From: a virus
Taxonomy: Duplodnaviria; Caudoviricetes
Strand: one strand, 5' to 3'
DNA: 48,194 bases
IMG/VR virus record: IMGVR_UViG_3300022917_000014
Location: 1-48,194 of that record
A model generated the notes under the pieces. The model made no database searches and was not told where the DNA came from. It worked only from the letters and a program-made list of their open reading frames with translations. The translations under genes were made by a program, and so were the position numbers. Positions within the stretch are counted from its first letter, which is position 1, and each line of letters opens with the position of its first letter. Below, piece after piece: positions 3,047 to 40,353 of the stretch.

Positions 3047-3073
3047 GGTGCTTTGTTTTTGTAAATGTAAAAT

Positions 3074-3102
3074 AAAAAAACCGGCACATTGCTGCGCCGG
3101 TT
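3074..3102 (-). terminator. Intrinsic terminator after the major capsid gene
   Basis: AACCGGCGCA-GCAA-TGTGCCGGTT followed by a T-run on the minus strand. Confidence 0.85.
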
Positions 3103-3144
3103 GTGTTTCCGCTTTTATCGGTGGCAAAACTGAAAGCCTGGGTA

Positions 3145-4182
3145 TTATGCGCCCTTGCTGTAGGACAGCACACCGGTCGGGTTGTAGTTCACTGAGCTAA
3201 CAGTAACGGTACAACCTTCAGGGTTTAAGAAGATACCGCCCCTGGTCTTCACTTTCCAGGTATGTACCAGGTGTTCCTGGGCTCCTGCGCTGGTACAGGT
3301 GAGTGCGTAGTAAACATCATACTTCACGCCCGGGATAACGGAACTGGGTGCAGTGTAGCGGGTCTGGTTAACCTTGCCGCCCACTTCCACCGGCGTATCG
3401 CTGTTCCGTACTTTGGTCACGAAAGCAATGGCGCTGGAAGATACCGCAAAGGTGTCCTCTGTCAGCCCTGCAGGTCCAAAATTAAACGGGTCGAAGTACA
3501 TGCGCAACTGTGCAATGCGGGCCGCGTCGCCCTTGCCGTCCAGGTTGCCGGCATTCAATTGGGCGTTGGTCCAGGGCACCCACAAACCACCGTTGTCGAT
3601 GTAGTAGGCGTTACCCAATTTGTTCATCATTGCGTCGTACATCATTTCCGCGATCATAGACACATTATACTGGGCAGCGGGTACTGTAGTAGTGCCTGCA
3701 GCGTAGGTATAAGGTTCTGGTGACACGTTGATGCCGGCGAAAGCCTTCAACTTTACAAGGTTCTGCTGTGCCCACCATTCGTCCAGGGCTTTGATCGCAA
3801 AGGCCAATCCGCTGGCCGCTTCCTCCTCGACCGTGTACGTATTGGTCCGGGTCTTTTCCGCGTCTACGGAAAAGGTGACCTCTTTACACATGTCCAGCGT
3901 GTAGGTCTTGCCGCCGCTTTCAAGCTCGGCACCTACTACGGTACAATCGGTGGTACAGTCCTGCACCGCTACGGCGCAAGGGTTGATAAAGTTTACAATG
4001 ACCTGGTTTTCCTTGTCGCGGTCTTCCAGCATTGAAAAACGGGCCGTGCTGTTTGTCTTCACAGCCACGGCTGCCTGGGCATTCGCTTTGTAGTCCTGCG
4101 CCAATCGGCTATCTGCCCACATGCTTTCCGCCTTAAGCTTGATTGCTAAGAGGGCCGATGCACTGAAATCGCCTGCTGCCAT
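3145..4182 (-). CDS. Major capsid protein
   Basis: 345 aa; follows a scaffold-like gene and is followed by a strong terminator; typical size and position. Confidence 0.75.
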   Translation of the reverse strand: MAAGDFSASALLAIKLKAESMWADSRLAQDYKANAQAAVAVKTNSTARFSMLEDRDKENQVIVNFINPCAVAVQDCTTDCTVVGAELESGGKTYTLDMCKEVTFSVDAEKTRTNTYTVEEEAASGLAFAIKALDEWWAQQNLVKLKAFAGINVSPEPYTYAAGTTTVPAAQYNVSMIAEMMYDAMMNKLGNAYYIDNGGLWVPWTNAQLNAGNLDGKGDAARIAQLRMYFDPFNFGPAGLTEDTFAVSSSAIAFVTKVRNSDTPVEVGGKVNQTRYTAPSSVIPGVKYDVYYALTCTSAGAQEHLVHTWKVKTRGGIFLNPEGCTVTVSSVNYNPTGVLSYSKGA

Positions 4183-4230
4183 GTTAAAAAAATTAATGGG
4201 TTAGTAAAAAAATGGTTAGTAAGTAAGAGC

Positions 4231-5178
4231 CTATTTTGTGCCGGCGGCCTGTTCGGTCTGCCACACATTCATCACTGTTTGCCGGTCTTCCAGCTTGATC
4301 TTGTCGTCATTTACGATTGCTGACAATTGTTCCAGGTTAGTCGGCTTCGTGATGCCTGCAGGATAAACTACCGCTGCTGCACCGCCTGCCGCTGCGCCCT
4401 TCCCTGCATCCGCATTACTTGTGCTGCCGCCTCCGTTGTTTTGCTGAAACTCGAAGTATCCGGCTGCATTCGTTTTTGCCAGATCGTCCAGGGTAACATT
4501 GTTGCCGTGGCTGTCTGTATGCACCTTCCCGTCTTTCATAACCAGGATGGTCTTGCCGTCGGCCTGCGTTTCGTAGTCAAAGTCCTTGAATGTCGCCAGG
4601 TAAGCCTTTTTAAGATTGTCAGCAACCTGTGGATTTTTCGGCAAAATAGGGTTCATTCCTGTGACGGTCTCCCATGCTTTAGTGCCTACAACCGCGAACG
4701 TTTCCGCTTTTTTCTGGCCGGTTTCCAGTTCGGTCACCTTTGCCTGCCATGTGCTATTGGCTTCGGTCAGGGCCTTTTTATGGTCCTTAACAGTCTGCTG
4801 ATAGAACGGGCTTTTACGTATGTCGTCCTCGGTGATTTCCTTCGGCTTTGCTCCTGTTGGTGCCTTCGCTGTGACGATAACGTCGATCAGGTCCAGGCCA
4901 GTGGCATCGCTTTCAATCTCAAACTTTTCTTTGATGGTTTTTTCCAGTTCAGTAAGACTTTCCTTTTTACCTTTTGCATATCCGTCCTGAAAAGTTTGCC
5001 CCTTAGCGGGCGTCTTCAGTGTGGCAATGCGGGCGGTGTCTTTGTCTAAAATGGTTTGTGTAGCTGTCTCCTGGGCATTGTCTTCTGACGAATTTAGGAG
5101 TTCGTCGATCTCCCCGTCTTGCATTTTGTAAACCTTTGCAAGTAAGGCCCGTAGAATTTTTGAAGCGTCGATTTTCAT
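4231..5178 (-). CDS. Capsid scaffolding protein
   Basis: 315 aa, charged helical/coiled-coil with a Gly/Ala linker and short C-terminal domain; immediately upstream of MCP. Confidence 0.65.
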   Translation of the reverse strand: MKIDASKILRALLAKVYKMQDGEIDELLNSSEDNAQETATQTILDKDTARIATLKTPAKGQTFQDGYAKGKKESLTELEKTIKEKFEIESDATGLDLIDVIVTAKAPTGAKPKEITEDDIRKSPFYQQTVKDHKKALTEANSTWQAKVTELETGQKKAETFAVVGTKAWETVTGMNPILPKNPQVADNLKKAYLATFKDFDYETQADGKTILVMKDGKVHTDSHGNNVTLDDLAKTNAAGYFEFQQNNGGGSTSNADAGKGAAAGGAAAVVYPAGITKPTNLEQLSAIVNDDKIKLEDRQTVMNVWQTEQAAGTK

Positions 5179-5209: not shown

Positions 5210-5440
5210 CTATTTTTTGGCGGCGGCCTTCTTTTTAGCCCCGCCTCGTTTCCCCTTCCCTTTGATGGCTTTCGCTTGTAGTGCTTTCAGTTCTGCCACC
5301 TCTGGGGGTTCTTTTATGGTCTTAACATATTCAAAAACACCCCGCCACATAGGGGTGTTTTTGTTCTGGTGCCATAAATCGGCATCGACCTGGCTGGTAA
5401 CCTTTGTGGTTCGGTTGCGGATAACGATAATATGGCCCAT
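5210..5440 (-). CDS. Hypothetical protein with Lys-rich tail
   Basis: 76 aa ORF, tightly packed with neighbours. Confidence 0.65.
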   Translation of the reverse strand: MGHIIVIRNRTTKVTSQVDADLWHQNKNTPMWRGVFEYVKTIKEPPEVAELKALQAKAIKGKGKRGGAKKKAAAKK

Positions 5441-6097: not shown

Positions 6098-6190
6098 TGT
6101 AAAAAGGTTTGTTTGATGTGTGATTGCAAAAATGGTTCCGACGCGGAAACACAGCCGGTGCAGAACCTCATGCGTTGACAAATATAAAAG

Positions 6191-9897: not shown

Positions 9898-10152
9898 TTA
9901 CACGCTCGTAATGGCGGCCCACGCGCTGCCATTGTAGAAATTGAGCTTTTTCGTTGTGCTGTTGTAAATAATCAGCCCTTCCGGTACTCCGGTCAGCGCA
10001 TCCCGCACGGTGGTCGTGTACCAGGGGAAAAGCGACTTTTGTGCTGCTGCGATGCTGGTAAGCGTTCCCGCTGCCAGGTTGTCCAAAATATCAGTCTTTT
10101 CAAAGACCTTTTTGATTTCCGCCAGGTTCTTCGGCGATACTGTTGTGGCCAT
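9898..10152 (-). CDS. Small protein with a Bacteroidota fibre-type motif (possible virion decoration)
   Basis: PWYTTTVRDAL...GLIIYNSTTKKLNFYNGSAW resembles the recurrent 'P.mTtaqR.ai..pa.Gl.iYnt......y.g..W' motif. Confidence 0.55.
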   Translation of the reverse strand: MATTVSPKNLAEIKKVFEKTDILDNLAAGTLTSIAAAQKSLFPWYTTTVRDALTGVPEGLIIYNSTTKKLNFYNGSAWAAITSV

Positions 10153-14040: not shown

Positions 14041-14148
14041 CTTTCTTTCAGTTTTGCCAATGAAAAACACCAGTCAGTCAGTTGCCACGCTGCTGCTGGT
14101 GTTACAAATTACGCTGTTTCCGTGCAAAAATTAAGAGAAAGCGTGCAA

Positions 14149-25775: not shown

Positions 25776-26279
25776 CTATACTATTTTGGAAATAAAGGCC
25801 GCTAATATCTTCGCCACCTGCCTGGGTGTTAGCCCGCGCGCCTGCATATCCACCTGACCGTGGGAGGCAAAAAACACCAACGAACCCGGCGCTATGCCAC
25901 TGTCAAAAGCAATGGTTTCACGTATGGATACTGCCATGCCCTTGATCTGTTGATCTGCAGTAAACCCTTGTACGTGACTATCCAGGCCCTTTAATGGCAG
26001 CTTACCGTCCGGCTGATTGATGGCACGGTCGAAGTTAAAAAGCGGCGCCTGTGCCCCTGCAGGGCCTTTGTAGCGGCCTCTTTTCTTCGCGGGTCGTTTG
26101 TTGACCTGTTTGTATGGCTTTTTTGTGAATTTAACCGCCCCAATCACATGTCGGCGCTGTCGAATAGCGTCGGGGTTCCGGCACATCTGTGTGGCTATGG
26201 CTGTGTCTTTCCAGCCAGCAGCAAATAAGTTTCGCAGGTTATTGTCCTGTTCCTGCGTCCAGGGCTTTGGCTTTGCCAT
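25776..26279 (-). CDS. Putative HTH DNA-binding protein
   Basis: WTQEQD..L..L...G.....IA..M.R...AI..R Myb/GcrA-like N-terminus. Confidence 0.55.
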   Translation of the reverse strand: MAKPKPWTQEQDNNLRNLFAAGWKDTAIATQMCRNPDAIRQRRHVIGAVKFTKKPYKQVNKRPAKKRGRYKGPAGAQAPLFNFDRAINQPDGKLPLKGLDSHVQGFTADQQIKGMAVSIRETIAFDSGIAPGSLVFFASHGQVDMQARGLTPRQVAKILAAFISKIV

Positions 26280-28259: not shown

Positions 28260-28336
28260 CTTAACTCGTTACCGTATGGGTATGGTGCAAATATAGTTCC
28301 CGGCCTGGAATTATACGCGCACGGATCAAAATAACA

Positions 28337-30471: not shown

Positions 30472-30726
30472 TTAAGCCTGATCTGCCATTGCATTCATGG
30501 TAGCGGCAGCACTCTTTTCTGCAGTCAGCCGGTCCATAAAGAACTTGTTAATCAGGTCCGGCAGTTCTGGAACGGTCACGTAACCGTAGTTAAGAGCCCG
30601 GCGAATTGTTGGCCCGCTGTACTCAATCACTTTCCGCATTTCCAGCACGTCCCCGCGCCTCATAAGCCGCTGCCATGTCTGGTGAAGTTCTGCACTGATC
30701 GTGCATGGATACTCTGTTTTAGCCAT
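30472..30726 (-). CDS. Small putative HTH regulator
   Basis: 84 aa; GD..EM....YSGPTIRRALN HTH-like segment. Confidence 0.45.
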   Translation of the reverse strand: MAKTEYPCTISAELHQTWQRLMRRGDVLEMRKVIEYSGPTIRRALNYGYVTVPELPDLINKFFMDRLTAEKSAAATMNAMADQA

Positions 30727-30800: not shown

Positions 30801-30831
30801 AAAAAAGCCTGAACCGGTTAAGGTCCAGGCT
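30801..30831 (-). terminator. Intrinsic terminator
   Basis: AGCCTGGACC-TTAACC-GGTTCAGGCT-TTTTT. Confidence 0.8.
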
Positions 30832-30882
30832 GCCAGCTATGCCAATGTAAACGCAGATACCTGTACCAAATGTAAGTACTTT

Positions 30883-35958: not shown

Positions 35959-36696
35959 TTACTTCCGTAATCTGTCATAGGCAACAATCGAAACGACGGC
36001 GAACGCGACCGGCTTACCCCATCGGTGCCACCACGTCACGCGGTCCTTAACCACCAGGCTGGTGATGCCGGTAGTAGTGAATGCGGGGTTTTCATTGATG
36101 GCCTGTACAGCCGTCTGGCGCTTCCAGTTCAGAAAGCCGGACGATAGGGTCACCGTCCGCAGGTGCAGCTTGTTCGTGATCTTCATACTGTCCACTCGCA
36201 CGCCCGCGCGTACGACCACGCCCGCGAAGCTCATCGTACTGTCCACGTACTTAAACGGTCGGGGTATCCTGATCAGGTTGGTGTCTGCCGGCTGTGGCGG
36301 TATGTCTCCGACATGCGTGTCGGTGACATGCGGCGTATCGGTCCAGGTGGCCAGCTTGTCCTTGTAGGTCACCTGTTGCGCAATACGGGCATATCGTTGC
36401 ACCTCCTTTACTCGGCGCTGGTCTGCCTTCTTAAGGTCAAAAATCGTGTCTGTGAGGCTTTTTAGCTGCTTACTGTTTTCGACCTGGTGTTCATCGTTCT
36501 GTGCGATTAGCTGGCCGTTCTGTCCCTGCAGGGTCACGGTCTGCTTTTCCAGGCTATCGACTACGCCCTGCAGGTTACCCGCAATGGCGTCTTTGTGGCA
36601 GCCGTTCCATAGTGAAAAGATTAGCCAGGCGGCTAAAAAAGGTAACGCCCAGCGGGATGCCTGGGCGTACAGTGTTTTTAAATTGAGTGCTTTCAT
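35959..36696 (-). CDS. Putative spanin (possibly unimolecular)
   Basis: N-terminal hydrophobic segment ending LWNGC, coiled-coil plus beta region, C-terminal TM helix; lysis cassette context. Confidence 0.55.
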   Translation of the reverse strand: MKALNLKTLYAQASRWALPFLAAWLIFSLWNGCHKDAIAGNLQGVVDSLEKQTVTLQGQNGQLIAQNDEHQVENSKQLKSLTDTIFDLKKADQRRVKEVQRYARIAQQVTYKDKLATWTDTPHVTDTHVGDIPPQPADTNLIRIPRPFKYVDSTMSFAGVVVRAGVRVDSMKITNKLHLRTVTLSSGFLNWKRQTAVQAINENPAFTTTGITSLVVKDRVTWWHRWGKPVAFAVVSIVAYDRLRK

Positions 36697-36716
36697 GTTT
36701 TGCCATTTTCCCAAAT

Positions 36717-39440: not shown

Positions 39441-40295
39441 TTAGAAAGACAGCGTACCAGTCTGGAAGACCGCCGGCCCGTGTTCCACTCCTGCCTTGTC
39501 CGTGTACAGGAAGTAGGTGCCCAGGTAATCGGTCGTAAAGTCGATGGTGGTTTCCTCTACGCCGCCCACTTCAATGGACATACTCGCGGGCGTACCCACG
39601 CGCGGGGAGATCGCGTTGAACTCAAATTTTTGGTCGGCATCCGTTGCCAGCACAGTCATGGTAATGCCCTGGTCTGTGTCAGTTGTAGAAGCTCCGACGG
39701 TCAATTCTGTGTCAAAAGTCGTAGGGGTTACACCGCTGCTGCCATCGTAAATCGGTGAAATAGCACGCTCAGGGTGGAACTTTGAACGCCAGGACAATAC
39801 GCCGTTGATCGTCTCAATCTCATCCCGGCCCCGGTTCAACACATCGTTGGCATCTACCCGGCTGGTAAAGCCTTCGTTACCCCCGAACATGTAACCGCCT
39901 TCGGTCTCATACCAGAAACGGTATTCGCCACCGCATTCCAGTGCCCTCATAAATTCGTAGTTCTCATCCGTCACATCGTCAATGGTCCAGTTAAGTGTGT
40001 GGTCCTTGCCGATGGTGACCCGGCGGCCGTTGCTCACTTCCTTTACCACCGATGTGGCTGCCGGCTTGTCTCCGATCACCGTAAGGGCGCGAATGTAATC
40101 ATTGCCGACAACGTTCGTTTCGCTCATACGGGCAATCCATTCGCCTGCAGCCTTCCAGTTGGCGAACGGGGCGGCGTTCAGCTTTGCGATGAATATGCGC
40201 CGTATTTCACTGAAAACTACGTTGGGTGCGCAGCGGTTGAACTTAACCACCGGCAGCGTAGCATTGCAGTCTAAAGTACATGTAGGTACTGGCAT
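39441..40295 (-). CDS. Putative major tail (tube) protein with C-terminal extension
   Basis: Beta-rich ~185 aa core plus extra domain; own promoter and terminator; shares a 16-nt leader element with MCP. Confidence 0.6.
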   Translation of the reverse strand: MPVPTCTLDCNATLPVVKFNRCAPNVVFSEIRRIFIAKLNAAPFANWKAAGEWIARMSETNVVGNDYIRALTVIGDKPAATSVVKEVSNGRRVTIGKDHTLNWTIDDVTDENYEFMRALECGGEYRFWYETEGGYMFGGNEGFTSRVDANDVLNRGRDEIETINGVLSWRSKFHPERAISPIYDGSSGVTPTTFDTELTVGASTTDTDQGITMTVLATDADQKFEFNAISPRVGTPASMSIEVGGVEETTIDFTTDYLGTYFLYTDKAGVEHGPAVFQTGTLSF

Positions 40296-40353
40296 AGCTT
40301 GAAATTTTTAATGGGTTAGTAAATCTGTACCAAATATATAATTTTTGGCCTCG

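Follow-up and report, generated by a model that had tools for sequence, protein, structure and literature searches.

A predicted phage small RNA and a capsid 3′-UTR complementary to it and to distant gene starts

Head-to-tail matching and the delay of packaging and lysis in phages are usually ascribed to promoters, antiterminators and ribosome-binding strength. P4 CI and P1 C4 are reportedly small phage RNAs which pair in trans with phage leader sites, and termination of early or antirepressor transcripts is said to be the means by which they keep up immunity. CisR is said to be a host 3′-UTR RNA acting on the mRNA of a filamentous phage. According to the accessible part of a 2024 review, it has yet to be established what non-coding RNAs do in lytic phages (PMC10884466).

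The closest described systems differ in setting. GcvB and SroC of Salmonella are a small RNA and its mRNA-derived sponge, as presented in the available part of PMC4474525. SviR of the PLE satellite is described in the accessible text of its preprint as a trans-acting, chaperone-independent small RNA (bioRxiv 10.1101/2022.04.08.487710). In Bacteroides thetaiotaomicron, GibS acts across start codons and no Hfq homologue is known, according to the portion of PMC7366714 at hand. STnc6030 of prophage BTP1 and aQ of phage lambda are phage RNAs which lower the expression of a tail gene or of a late-gene activator; both are treated in the available part of the review PMC12197685, which also contains a table of 38 uncharacterised phage sRNAs that could bear on novelty. 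The word ‘capsid’ is absent from that part of the review.

Here we analyse two complementary segments of a phage genome: R, the 3′-UTR of the capsid gene, and S, a predicted short RNA encoded upstream of recombination genes. As far as sequence can tell, the R/S feature is real, conserved and larger than the initial annotation of this DNA had described. The window, i.e. the whole stretch of 48,194 nucleotides analysed, is an entire phage genome of about 48 kb with a terminal direct repeat of 126 bp and with its genes on the minus strand; all window features given below lie on that strand. The window is denoted G000, the records fetched for relatives are G001–G005, and three distant genomes are G006, G009 and G010.

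Genome, host and gene labels

PHROG matches were obtained for a tape measure protein, an amidase, a DNA methyltransferase, RecT-like and RecE-like proteins, a replication initiator and a helicase, and they were weak for terL, portal and head. No integrase was detected among the 56 and 53 proteins scanned. We infer a Bacteroidota host because the GGAG/GAGG motif occurs at 0 of 62 starts, an A stands at −3 in 32 of 62, TAnnTTTG boxes come after terminators, and two capsid relatives in bacterial genomes belong to a Chitinophagaceae record and a Flavobacterium record. The start-site and promoter-box features are Bacteroidetes traits according to the available part of PMC7366714.

The major capsid protein gene (3145–4182, 345 aa) has no PHROG or Pfam match, and no capsid relative was found in the annotated phage collection. 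Its AlphaFold model (pLDDT 82.7) has phage capsids as Foldseek PDB matches; the top matches are all capsid-type shells, with a best E value of 4.6e-8. For the tail tube protein gene (39441–40295, 284 aa; model pLDDT 89.9), the top Foldseek matches correspond to the lambda tail tube protein gpV (E 1e-4). The labels terS, spanin and chaperone we infer from position and architecture, the three having no family match. The putative terS ORF (14040–13468) lies directly before terL. The spanin-like ORF (36696–35959) has hydrophobic ends and an early Cys, is located between a holin-like ORF and the amidase, and falls in the atlas only into viral hypothetical clusters. The putative tail assembly chaperone starts at ATG 268, crosses the terminal repeat to 47812 and precedes the tape measure gene. 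In eight of eight genomes an overlapping second frame is open across its stop and into a 55-aa ORF (window 47870–47597), a layout as in G/GT tail chaperones; a canonical slippery heptamer is not conserved and is present in 2 of 8 genomes only. An additional ORF, which we take to be HNH-like from its motifs, is inserted between two head-tail genes in the related locus L001 (about 4000–4415) and in G006, and is absent from the window.

The capsid 3′-UTR and its predicted start-region partners

R comprises 72 nt (3073–3144) from the capsid stop codon to the end of a terminator U-tract, as delimited by sequence, fold and alignment. Its fold has a z-score of −2.8, and R was aligned across six genomes. 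The seed, GCUUUCAGUUUUGCCA (3122–3137), begins 8 nt past the stop of ORF 4182–3145, and the segment is closed by an intrinsic-terminator-like hairpin with U-tract (3074–3102), identified in a terminator scan. This terminator is present in all six aligned genomes with a different stem sequence. With a stop codon ahead of it and an intrinsic terminator at its end, R is placed as 3′-UTR-derived small RNAs are. The seed is mostly open in the isolated UTR and only 41% unpaired in a 190-nt context.

Among 38 related loci, the seed is exact in five (L001, L003, L016, L017 and L018; capsid identity 71–79%), of which L001 and L003 are closely related to each other; it contains one extra U in L019, and it is absent from 32 loci with a capsid identity of 53% or less. 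Across the five relatives the seed is invariant while its flanks drift. An exact 17-mer scan of viral contigs gave 79 matches, 4 in contigs with this capsid gene and 75 in contigs without it; many of the matches outside capsid contigs correspond, on the other strand, to codons in common use.

The last 200 nt of the capsid gene contain no −7-like box in nine of nine genomes, and because an internal box of this kind is absent, R would be either the 3′ end of the whole capsid mRNA or a processed fragment of it. An antisense or internal promoter at the seed was considered and rejected, as neither strand carries a conserved −7 box; the strand opposite the UTR has none. G010 has one −7-like box just past the capsid stop. 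Beyond the capsid terminator, the same genome harbors three successive units of box, short RNA and terminator (L147 2404–2720), and G009 a tRNA-like sequence.

The initial annotation had proposed that the seed pairs with three distant start regions, and a check of the sequence reproduced all three pairings and their coordinates. The predicted target in the putative terS leader (14045–14059) is matched by 15 of 15 Watson–Crick pairs and lies 4 nt before ATG 14040; the one across the spanin-like start (36689–36705) comprises 16 bp with the A of the AUG (36696) bulged; the one at the putative chaperone start (254–267) comprises 14 bp with one G–U. The 15-nt terS match is one of four non-palindromic 15-nt inverted repeats in the genome, and order-1 Markov genomes contain 1.0 such repeats on average (range 0–5 in 30 runs), which makes it weak when taken alone. 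The window alone therefore proves little for the R pairings. The 16-mer has two other matches at ≤2 mismatches, where 0.09 are expected. One of them (5283–5298; 15/16, one G–U) is located inside a 76-aa ORF (5440–5210); this coding-sequence site, which the initial annotation did not include, surpasses the other tested sites in net binding (−25.8 kcal/mol) and has weaker counterparts at the corresponding position in relatives.

What lifts the R pairings above chance is their conservation in relatives. Loss of complementarity in close relatives, which the initial annotation had named as evidence against its reading, is the exception: the terS site is kept in 2 of 2 relatives that have the orthologue, the spanin-like site in 2 of 2 and the chaperone site in 3 of 4. 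The chaperone site persists in G001, G003 and G004 and is lost in G005 (rank 51/54) though the seed is kept there; in G005, furthermore, terS is largely different (rank 4/55) and the record has no spanin-like homologue. With this G005 exception, the seed displays conserved complementarity to distant initiation regions.

When 39 orthologue groups of start regions (162 sequence windows) were ranked by mean duplex energy with the seed, the spanin-like, terS and chaperone starts took ranks 1, 2 and 3, a result matched by none of 600 shuffled seeds. With the phage window left out, the summed top three was reached by 0 of 300 dinucleotide shuffles and by 2 of 300 seeds antisense to distant-phage starts. 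Compared with the same offset in other genes, conservation ranks 1 of 39 for the spanin-like site, judged by retained pairing, 2 for terS and 8 for the chaperone. Within single genomes, the three named starts occupy ranks 1–3 of 67 in G001 and 2–4 of 63 in the window, where an unconserved site at 26279 is at the top; terS ranks 1/22 in G002, the chaperone 2/17 in G003, and in G004 the spanin-like and chaperone starts are first and third of 53. Net gains of R amount to −15.0, −22.0 and −20.3 for terS, chaperone and spanin-like starts and to −2 to −3 for the terL, capsid and portal starts. The pairing of R with terL, used as negative control in the close group, gave no signal (ranks 51/62, 57/66, 12/21 and 13/54). 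The seed is also predicted to pair well with start regions in general (mean −11.6 vs −8.7 ± 0.7 for shuffles); since it is sticky in this sense and complementary to common codons, part of the R-to-starts signal may reflect codon or start bias.

Upstream of the terS site, a three-genome alignment reveals a conserved promoter-like motif (14125–14101) and a hairpin (14102–14067), and G005 carries the same core motif and a hairpin upstream of terS though its terS gene is largely replaced. The whole segment (14067–14125) looks like a late promoter followed by a leader terminator. The motif, which ends in CGTAATTTGTAAC, occurs once per genome; in the hairpin, changes have occurred on both sides, the loop reads GGCAA or CGCAA, and a U-tract is present. 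In addition, head-region gene starts are top R targets in G003 (L017 2022) and G005 (L138 2353 and 3273), and the G005 sites use an extra U found only in the G005 seed. At 6178–6128 the window contains a −7 box and, after it, a short hairpin unit in which 10 nt are complementary to the distal capsid UTR (GCGGAAACAC); as a second promoter/hairpin unit it was dismissed, nothing of the kind having been seen at the equivalent position in relatives. The distal UTR of G001 and G004 instead has a 10–11-nt match to the start of the gene that precedes the chaperone.

Beyond the close group, the unrelated UTR of G009 pairs across its own chaperone AUG in an 11-nt run (−31.3, rank 1/69, 0/1000 shuffles), and other UTRs rank this start 11–69. 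Among 22 distant loci, only two have the chaperone start at rank 1. A family-wide pairing of R with terS was also considered: it ranks 3/75, 2/69 and 2/76 in G006, G009 and G010, but because non-cognate UTRs did as well, these ranks were not counted as support. Complementarity of R to starts thus appears to be mainly a close-group feature with one distant echo.

Unit S and its predicted pairing with R and with virion gene starts

S is a predicted early small RNA of about 63 nt (30801–30863), with a single-stranded part followed by a terminator hairpin (30831–30806) and a U-tract. A promoter-like −7 box, TACATTTG (30867–30874), precedes it and fits the TAnnTTTG consensus given in the available part of PMC7366714; this box or a one-mismatch variant is present before S in seven of seven genomes. 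Directly downstream lies a conserved 84-aa ORF (30472–30726) with homologues in six relatives and no PHROG match below E 0.03, which provides the synteny anchor. S is located upstream of this ORF and of the recombination genes. Located about 25 nt past the −7 box, in a unit of 59–69 nt, the segment complementary to R (30825–30845) extends into the 5′ arm of the terminator hairpin; the 13 nt at its 5′ end are complementary to the tail-tube start as well. The S stem has two-sided changes at 3 of 12 pairs in five sequences, the segment is 24% unpaired in the context fold, and the U-tract is weak in G009 and G010. At the level of sequence, S therefore has the make-up of a small-RNA gene: promoter, short non-coding body and terminator.

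Several scans converge on this unit. A genome-wide scan for R complements placed 30845–30825 near the top in 4/4 genomes covering it. A blind search for a box, a short RNA and a terminator returned four units in the window; of these, S complements the UTR best (−39.1 vs −19 to −22). The S pattern, searched in 2.9 million viral contigs, matched only G001, G004 and G005; a further copy exists in L158, the one new locus among six found by an alignment scan. Single-protein scans with terL and the 84-aa ORF yielded no loci. Rfam gave one chance match elsewhere in the window (E 0.54), and none at gathering score in six loci around S in relatives. Two more units of box, about 70 nt and terminator are present at 28287–28217 and 10246–10180; since G001 has a similar unit in the corresponding position (L132), the former may represent a further small RNA.

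S is the partner of R which the initial annotation missed; the strongest conserved partner is the S segment 30845–30825. It is the best non-coding site of R in four of four close genomes, with a mean energy which 1 of 300 shuffles attains at any place in non-coding DNA, and the S interval comes first among intergenic intervals for the UTR in 5 of 7 genomes. Co-folding of R and S yields net gains of −11.1, −15.3, −10.3 and −7.7 kcal/mol in the four close genomes; it opens the S terminator in G000 and G001 and leaves it closed in G004 and G005. The duplex retains a conserved U·U mismatch, which is accounted for by the pairing of that U with the tail-tube AUG. In G006 the S interval ranks 1/25 for the UTR (13/300 shuffles), and this is not cognate-specific, the window UTR scoring better; in G009 it ranks 2/24 (5/300 shuffles) and the cognate UTR is the best. 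The pairing is absent in G010 (261/300 shuffles). The sponge pairing is thus strong in G000, G001, G004 and G005, weak in G006 and G009, and not found in G010. In G006, the 10-nt word with which S pairs occurs both in the UTR and in the tube leader. Complementarities of this kind suggest that R would be at least as much a sponge of S as a repressor.

The predicted target of S across the tail-tube AUG (40295) is a 10-nt Watson–Crick run (40289–40299), unmatched in length among 62 start regions. In the close genomes the S core ranks the tube start 1/63, 2/67, 1/53 and 1/55, and on the window's tube start its own S scores −19.7 vs −12.0 to −13.9 for the other three S cores. One position of the S/tube pairing has changed on both sides within the close group (G–C in the window, A–U in the others). 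As runs of 10–12 nt linking one start or another to one intergenic segment or another are background (median 9–11 in a blind control), the close-group match counts only because S is fixed by synteny.

The distant genomes G006, G009 and G010, whose capsids are 45–48% identical and whose S sequences are unrelated, extend this relation. There S was fixed by synteny, as the stretch from box to hairpin upstream of the 84-aa homologue. The S–tube runs measure 10, 10, 11, 11, 13, 12 and 15 nt in G000, G001, G004, G005, G006, G009 and G010, and the tube run is the unique longest among 51–76 starts in 6 of 7 genomes; in G009 it is second to the capsid leader (17 nt). These runs were reached in 0–5 of 300–500 shuffles, and seeds swapped between groups give 4–10 nt. 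By ranks and swap matrix, the S seed co-varies with its target. A blind genome-wide scan returned the 17-nt run of G009 and the 15-nt run of G010 as unique best; the exclusion filter of the blind control hid the S–tube matches of G006 and G009. The seven genomes are related and represent about three independent sequence groups rather than seven. In ten more distant records or genomes the 84-aa anchor gene is absent, and six of these, at 28–32% capsid identity, have no outstanding complement to the capsid or tube leaders. Across the genomes compared, S-to-tube is the widest relation (7/7), followed by R:S (four strong, two weak, one absent).

The capsid leader is a second partner of S in G010 (12 nt). 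A pairing of S with this leader was rejected for the close group (ranks 34–53) and for G006. The capsid leader (4206–4190) and the tail-tube leader (40321–40305) of the window have a common motif, TACTAACCCATTAA, which is kept in the capsid leaders of G001–G004 and G007 and in the tube leader of G004. In G009 and G010, S pairs with a related ACCCATT word; in the close group no non-coding complement of TACTAACCCATTAA was found, so its constancy may be owed to something else, either an enhancer of translation or a protein. A second candidate target of S (10158–10146, one bulge) is the start of an 84-aa ORF at 10152–9898. It shows the same G–C (window) vs A–U (G001) change as the tube site and has the best net S binding in the window (−15.7); the site is weak in G005.

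A proposed RNA switch and its relation to known systems

Direct observation covers the complementarities with their conservation and compensatory changes, the promoter-like box and hairpins, and the capsid and tail-tube folds. The reading which we favor, with slightly more confidence than doubt, is that R and S constitute a small-RNA/sponge switch. Host RNA polymerase would transcribe S early as an RNA of about 63 nt, and S would occlude the initiation region of the tail-tube mRNA, as well as the capsid leader in G009 and G010. Later, with capsid mRNA plentiful, R, as the 3′ end of that mRNA or a processed fragment of about 70 nt, would pair with S by mimicking its target and free the tail-tube mRNA, which would tie tube output to capsid output. 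Lastly, R in excess of S would occlude the terS, chaperone and spanin-like starts, damping the low-copy genes of packaging, tail assembly and lysis. The steps up to the release of the tube mRNA are better supported than the last one, and we place higher confidence in S–tube and R:S than in R-to-starts; the feedback of R on the terS, chaperone and spanin-like genes, as proposed in the initial annotation, is plausible, and that reading is partly supported though incomplete. More tentatively, and with doubt outweighing conviction, the pair could be seen as a protein-free threshold circuit of two RNAs which times and proportions virion parts: S would early on restrain the high-copy structural mRNAs, R would count capsid output, first titrating S so that tail-tube synthesis is freed and later repressing the terminase, tail chaperone and lysis genes, and the seeds would have been rewritten at least twice in the subfamily with the wiring kept.

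Other explanations would account for part of these observations. It is unlikely that only the S/R pair is real, as small RNA and sponge or as S targeting the capsid mRNA, and that the complementarity of R to starts is a by-product of A-rich leaders and common codons (Met-Ala-Lys and Leu-Lys-Ala). Such an origin would fit the stickiness of R toward starts in general, the loss of the chaperone site in G005, the coding nature of that site with a conservation rank of only 8/39, and the location of the strongest window site inside coding sequence. It does not fit the terS site, which is wholly non-coding and ranks 2/39 in conservation despite a protein identity of only about 38%, nor the spanin-like leader, which retains GGCAAA although the remaining spacer and the flanking intergenic DNA have diverged; moreover, only 2 of 300 antisense-to-start controls equal the top three, and G009 re-creates the chaperone match with another sequence. 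A second −7-like box, found 27–36 nt before the 84-aa ORF in four of four close genomes, argues against the distinctly unlikely idea that S is the attenuator leader of an operon formed by this ORF and the recombination and replication genes, with late RNAs (R and the tube leader) opening its terminator in a late-to-early control. R does pair with the 5′ arm of the S terminator, its 5′ end copies the 3′ arm and the U-tract, co-folding opens the hairpin in G000 and G001, and S stands before the same gene in 7/7 genomes. However, co-folding does not open the terminator in G004 and G005, the pairings with the tube and capsid leaders miss it, and the paired segments are the initiation regions of two high-copy virion genes.

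We give little credence to the view that the shared words are DNA operators, bound in either orientation by a phage transcription factor such as the product of the 84-aa ORF. Copies are indeed present on both strands near promoters and gene starts, and no G–U bias is evident: with 10 G–U and 18 mismatches in 13 sites, the tally does not separate RNA from DNA recognition. Yet the words differ completely between groups whereas the 84-aa protein keeps an almost invariant S-x-P-x-I-x-x-A-L, one-base insertions occur in mid-word between sites (in the spanin-like site and in the G005 seed), and in 7/7 genomes the S copy has the opposite orientation to the tube copy and is placed in a short stretch ending in a terminator. 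That all matches result from chance and shared ancestry in A/U-rich non-coding DNA is hardly credible. The search was post hoc among related genomes, runs of 10–12 nt are background genome-wide, and the window contains four inverted 15-mers; but once S and tube are fixed, the runs of three distant genomes, whose seeds differ, rank 1/75, 2/69 and 1/76, and the 17- and 15-nt runs are unique genome-wide. For S–tube, chance is largely excluded.

If the small-RNA/sponge switch is correct, virion stoichiometry would have an additional level of control by RNA, through a phage small RNA and a capsid 3′-UTR sponge, in a group of hosts without Shine-Dalgarno sequences and Hfq. The natural seed variants of the three sequence groups are ready-made compensatory pairs, so that plasmid reporters suffice and no phage culture is needed. 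In searches of the open-licence literature, judged by titles and abstract openings, no phage-internal sRNA/sponge pair and no capsid-UTR regulator came up.

The comparison with known systems locates the novelty. As in GcvB/SroC, a segment derived from an mRNA is complementary to a small RNA acting in trans and would free the other targets of this RNA in the same pathway; the Salmonella circuit, in the available part of its source, is a metabolic one of the host and depends on Hfq and RNase E, whereas the partners and predicted targets of R/S all belong to one phage. Unlike SroC, R is a capsid 3′-UTR with predicted targets of its own and without a sequence family match. Its Hfq/RNase E dependence probably differs from the SroC type, given that Bacteroides has no obvious Hfq according to the accessible portion of PMC7366714. 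SviR likewise pairs near phage 5′-UTRs, including that of a putative capsid-morphogenesis gene, but it is encoded by a satellite and directed against the helper phage, and the available preprint text describes no capsid 3′-UTR sponge; here, a phage would regulate its own structural genes. GibS shares the start-codon pairing, the −7 box and a phylum lacking both Shine-Dalgarno sequences and an Hfq homologue; as far as the consulted part of its source goes, it is chromosomal and metabolic, with no phage link and no sponge partner described. STnc6030 and aQ are cis-antisense RNAs in the portion of the review available, whereas S and R are predicted to act on distant loci via short imperfect pairing. 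A cis-antisense arrangement was rejected here, the partners being 3–30 kb apart on the same strand.

The terS leader hairpin, with its GGCAA-like loop ahead of the main site, recalls what is said of P4 CI and P1 C4; unlike in those systems, the predicted targets here are virion genes, and there is no Rfam match. The parts, a small RNA and a 3′-UTR sponge, are thus of known kinds, and it is their use within one phage, over its own virion genes, that appears to be new.
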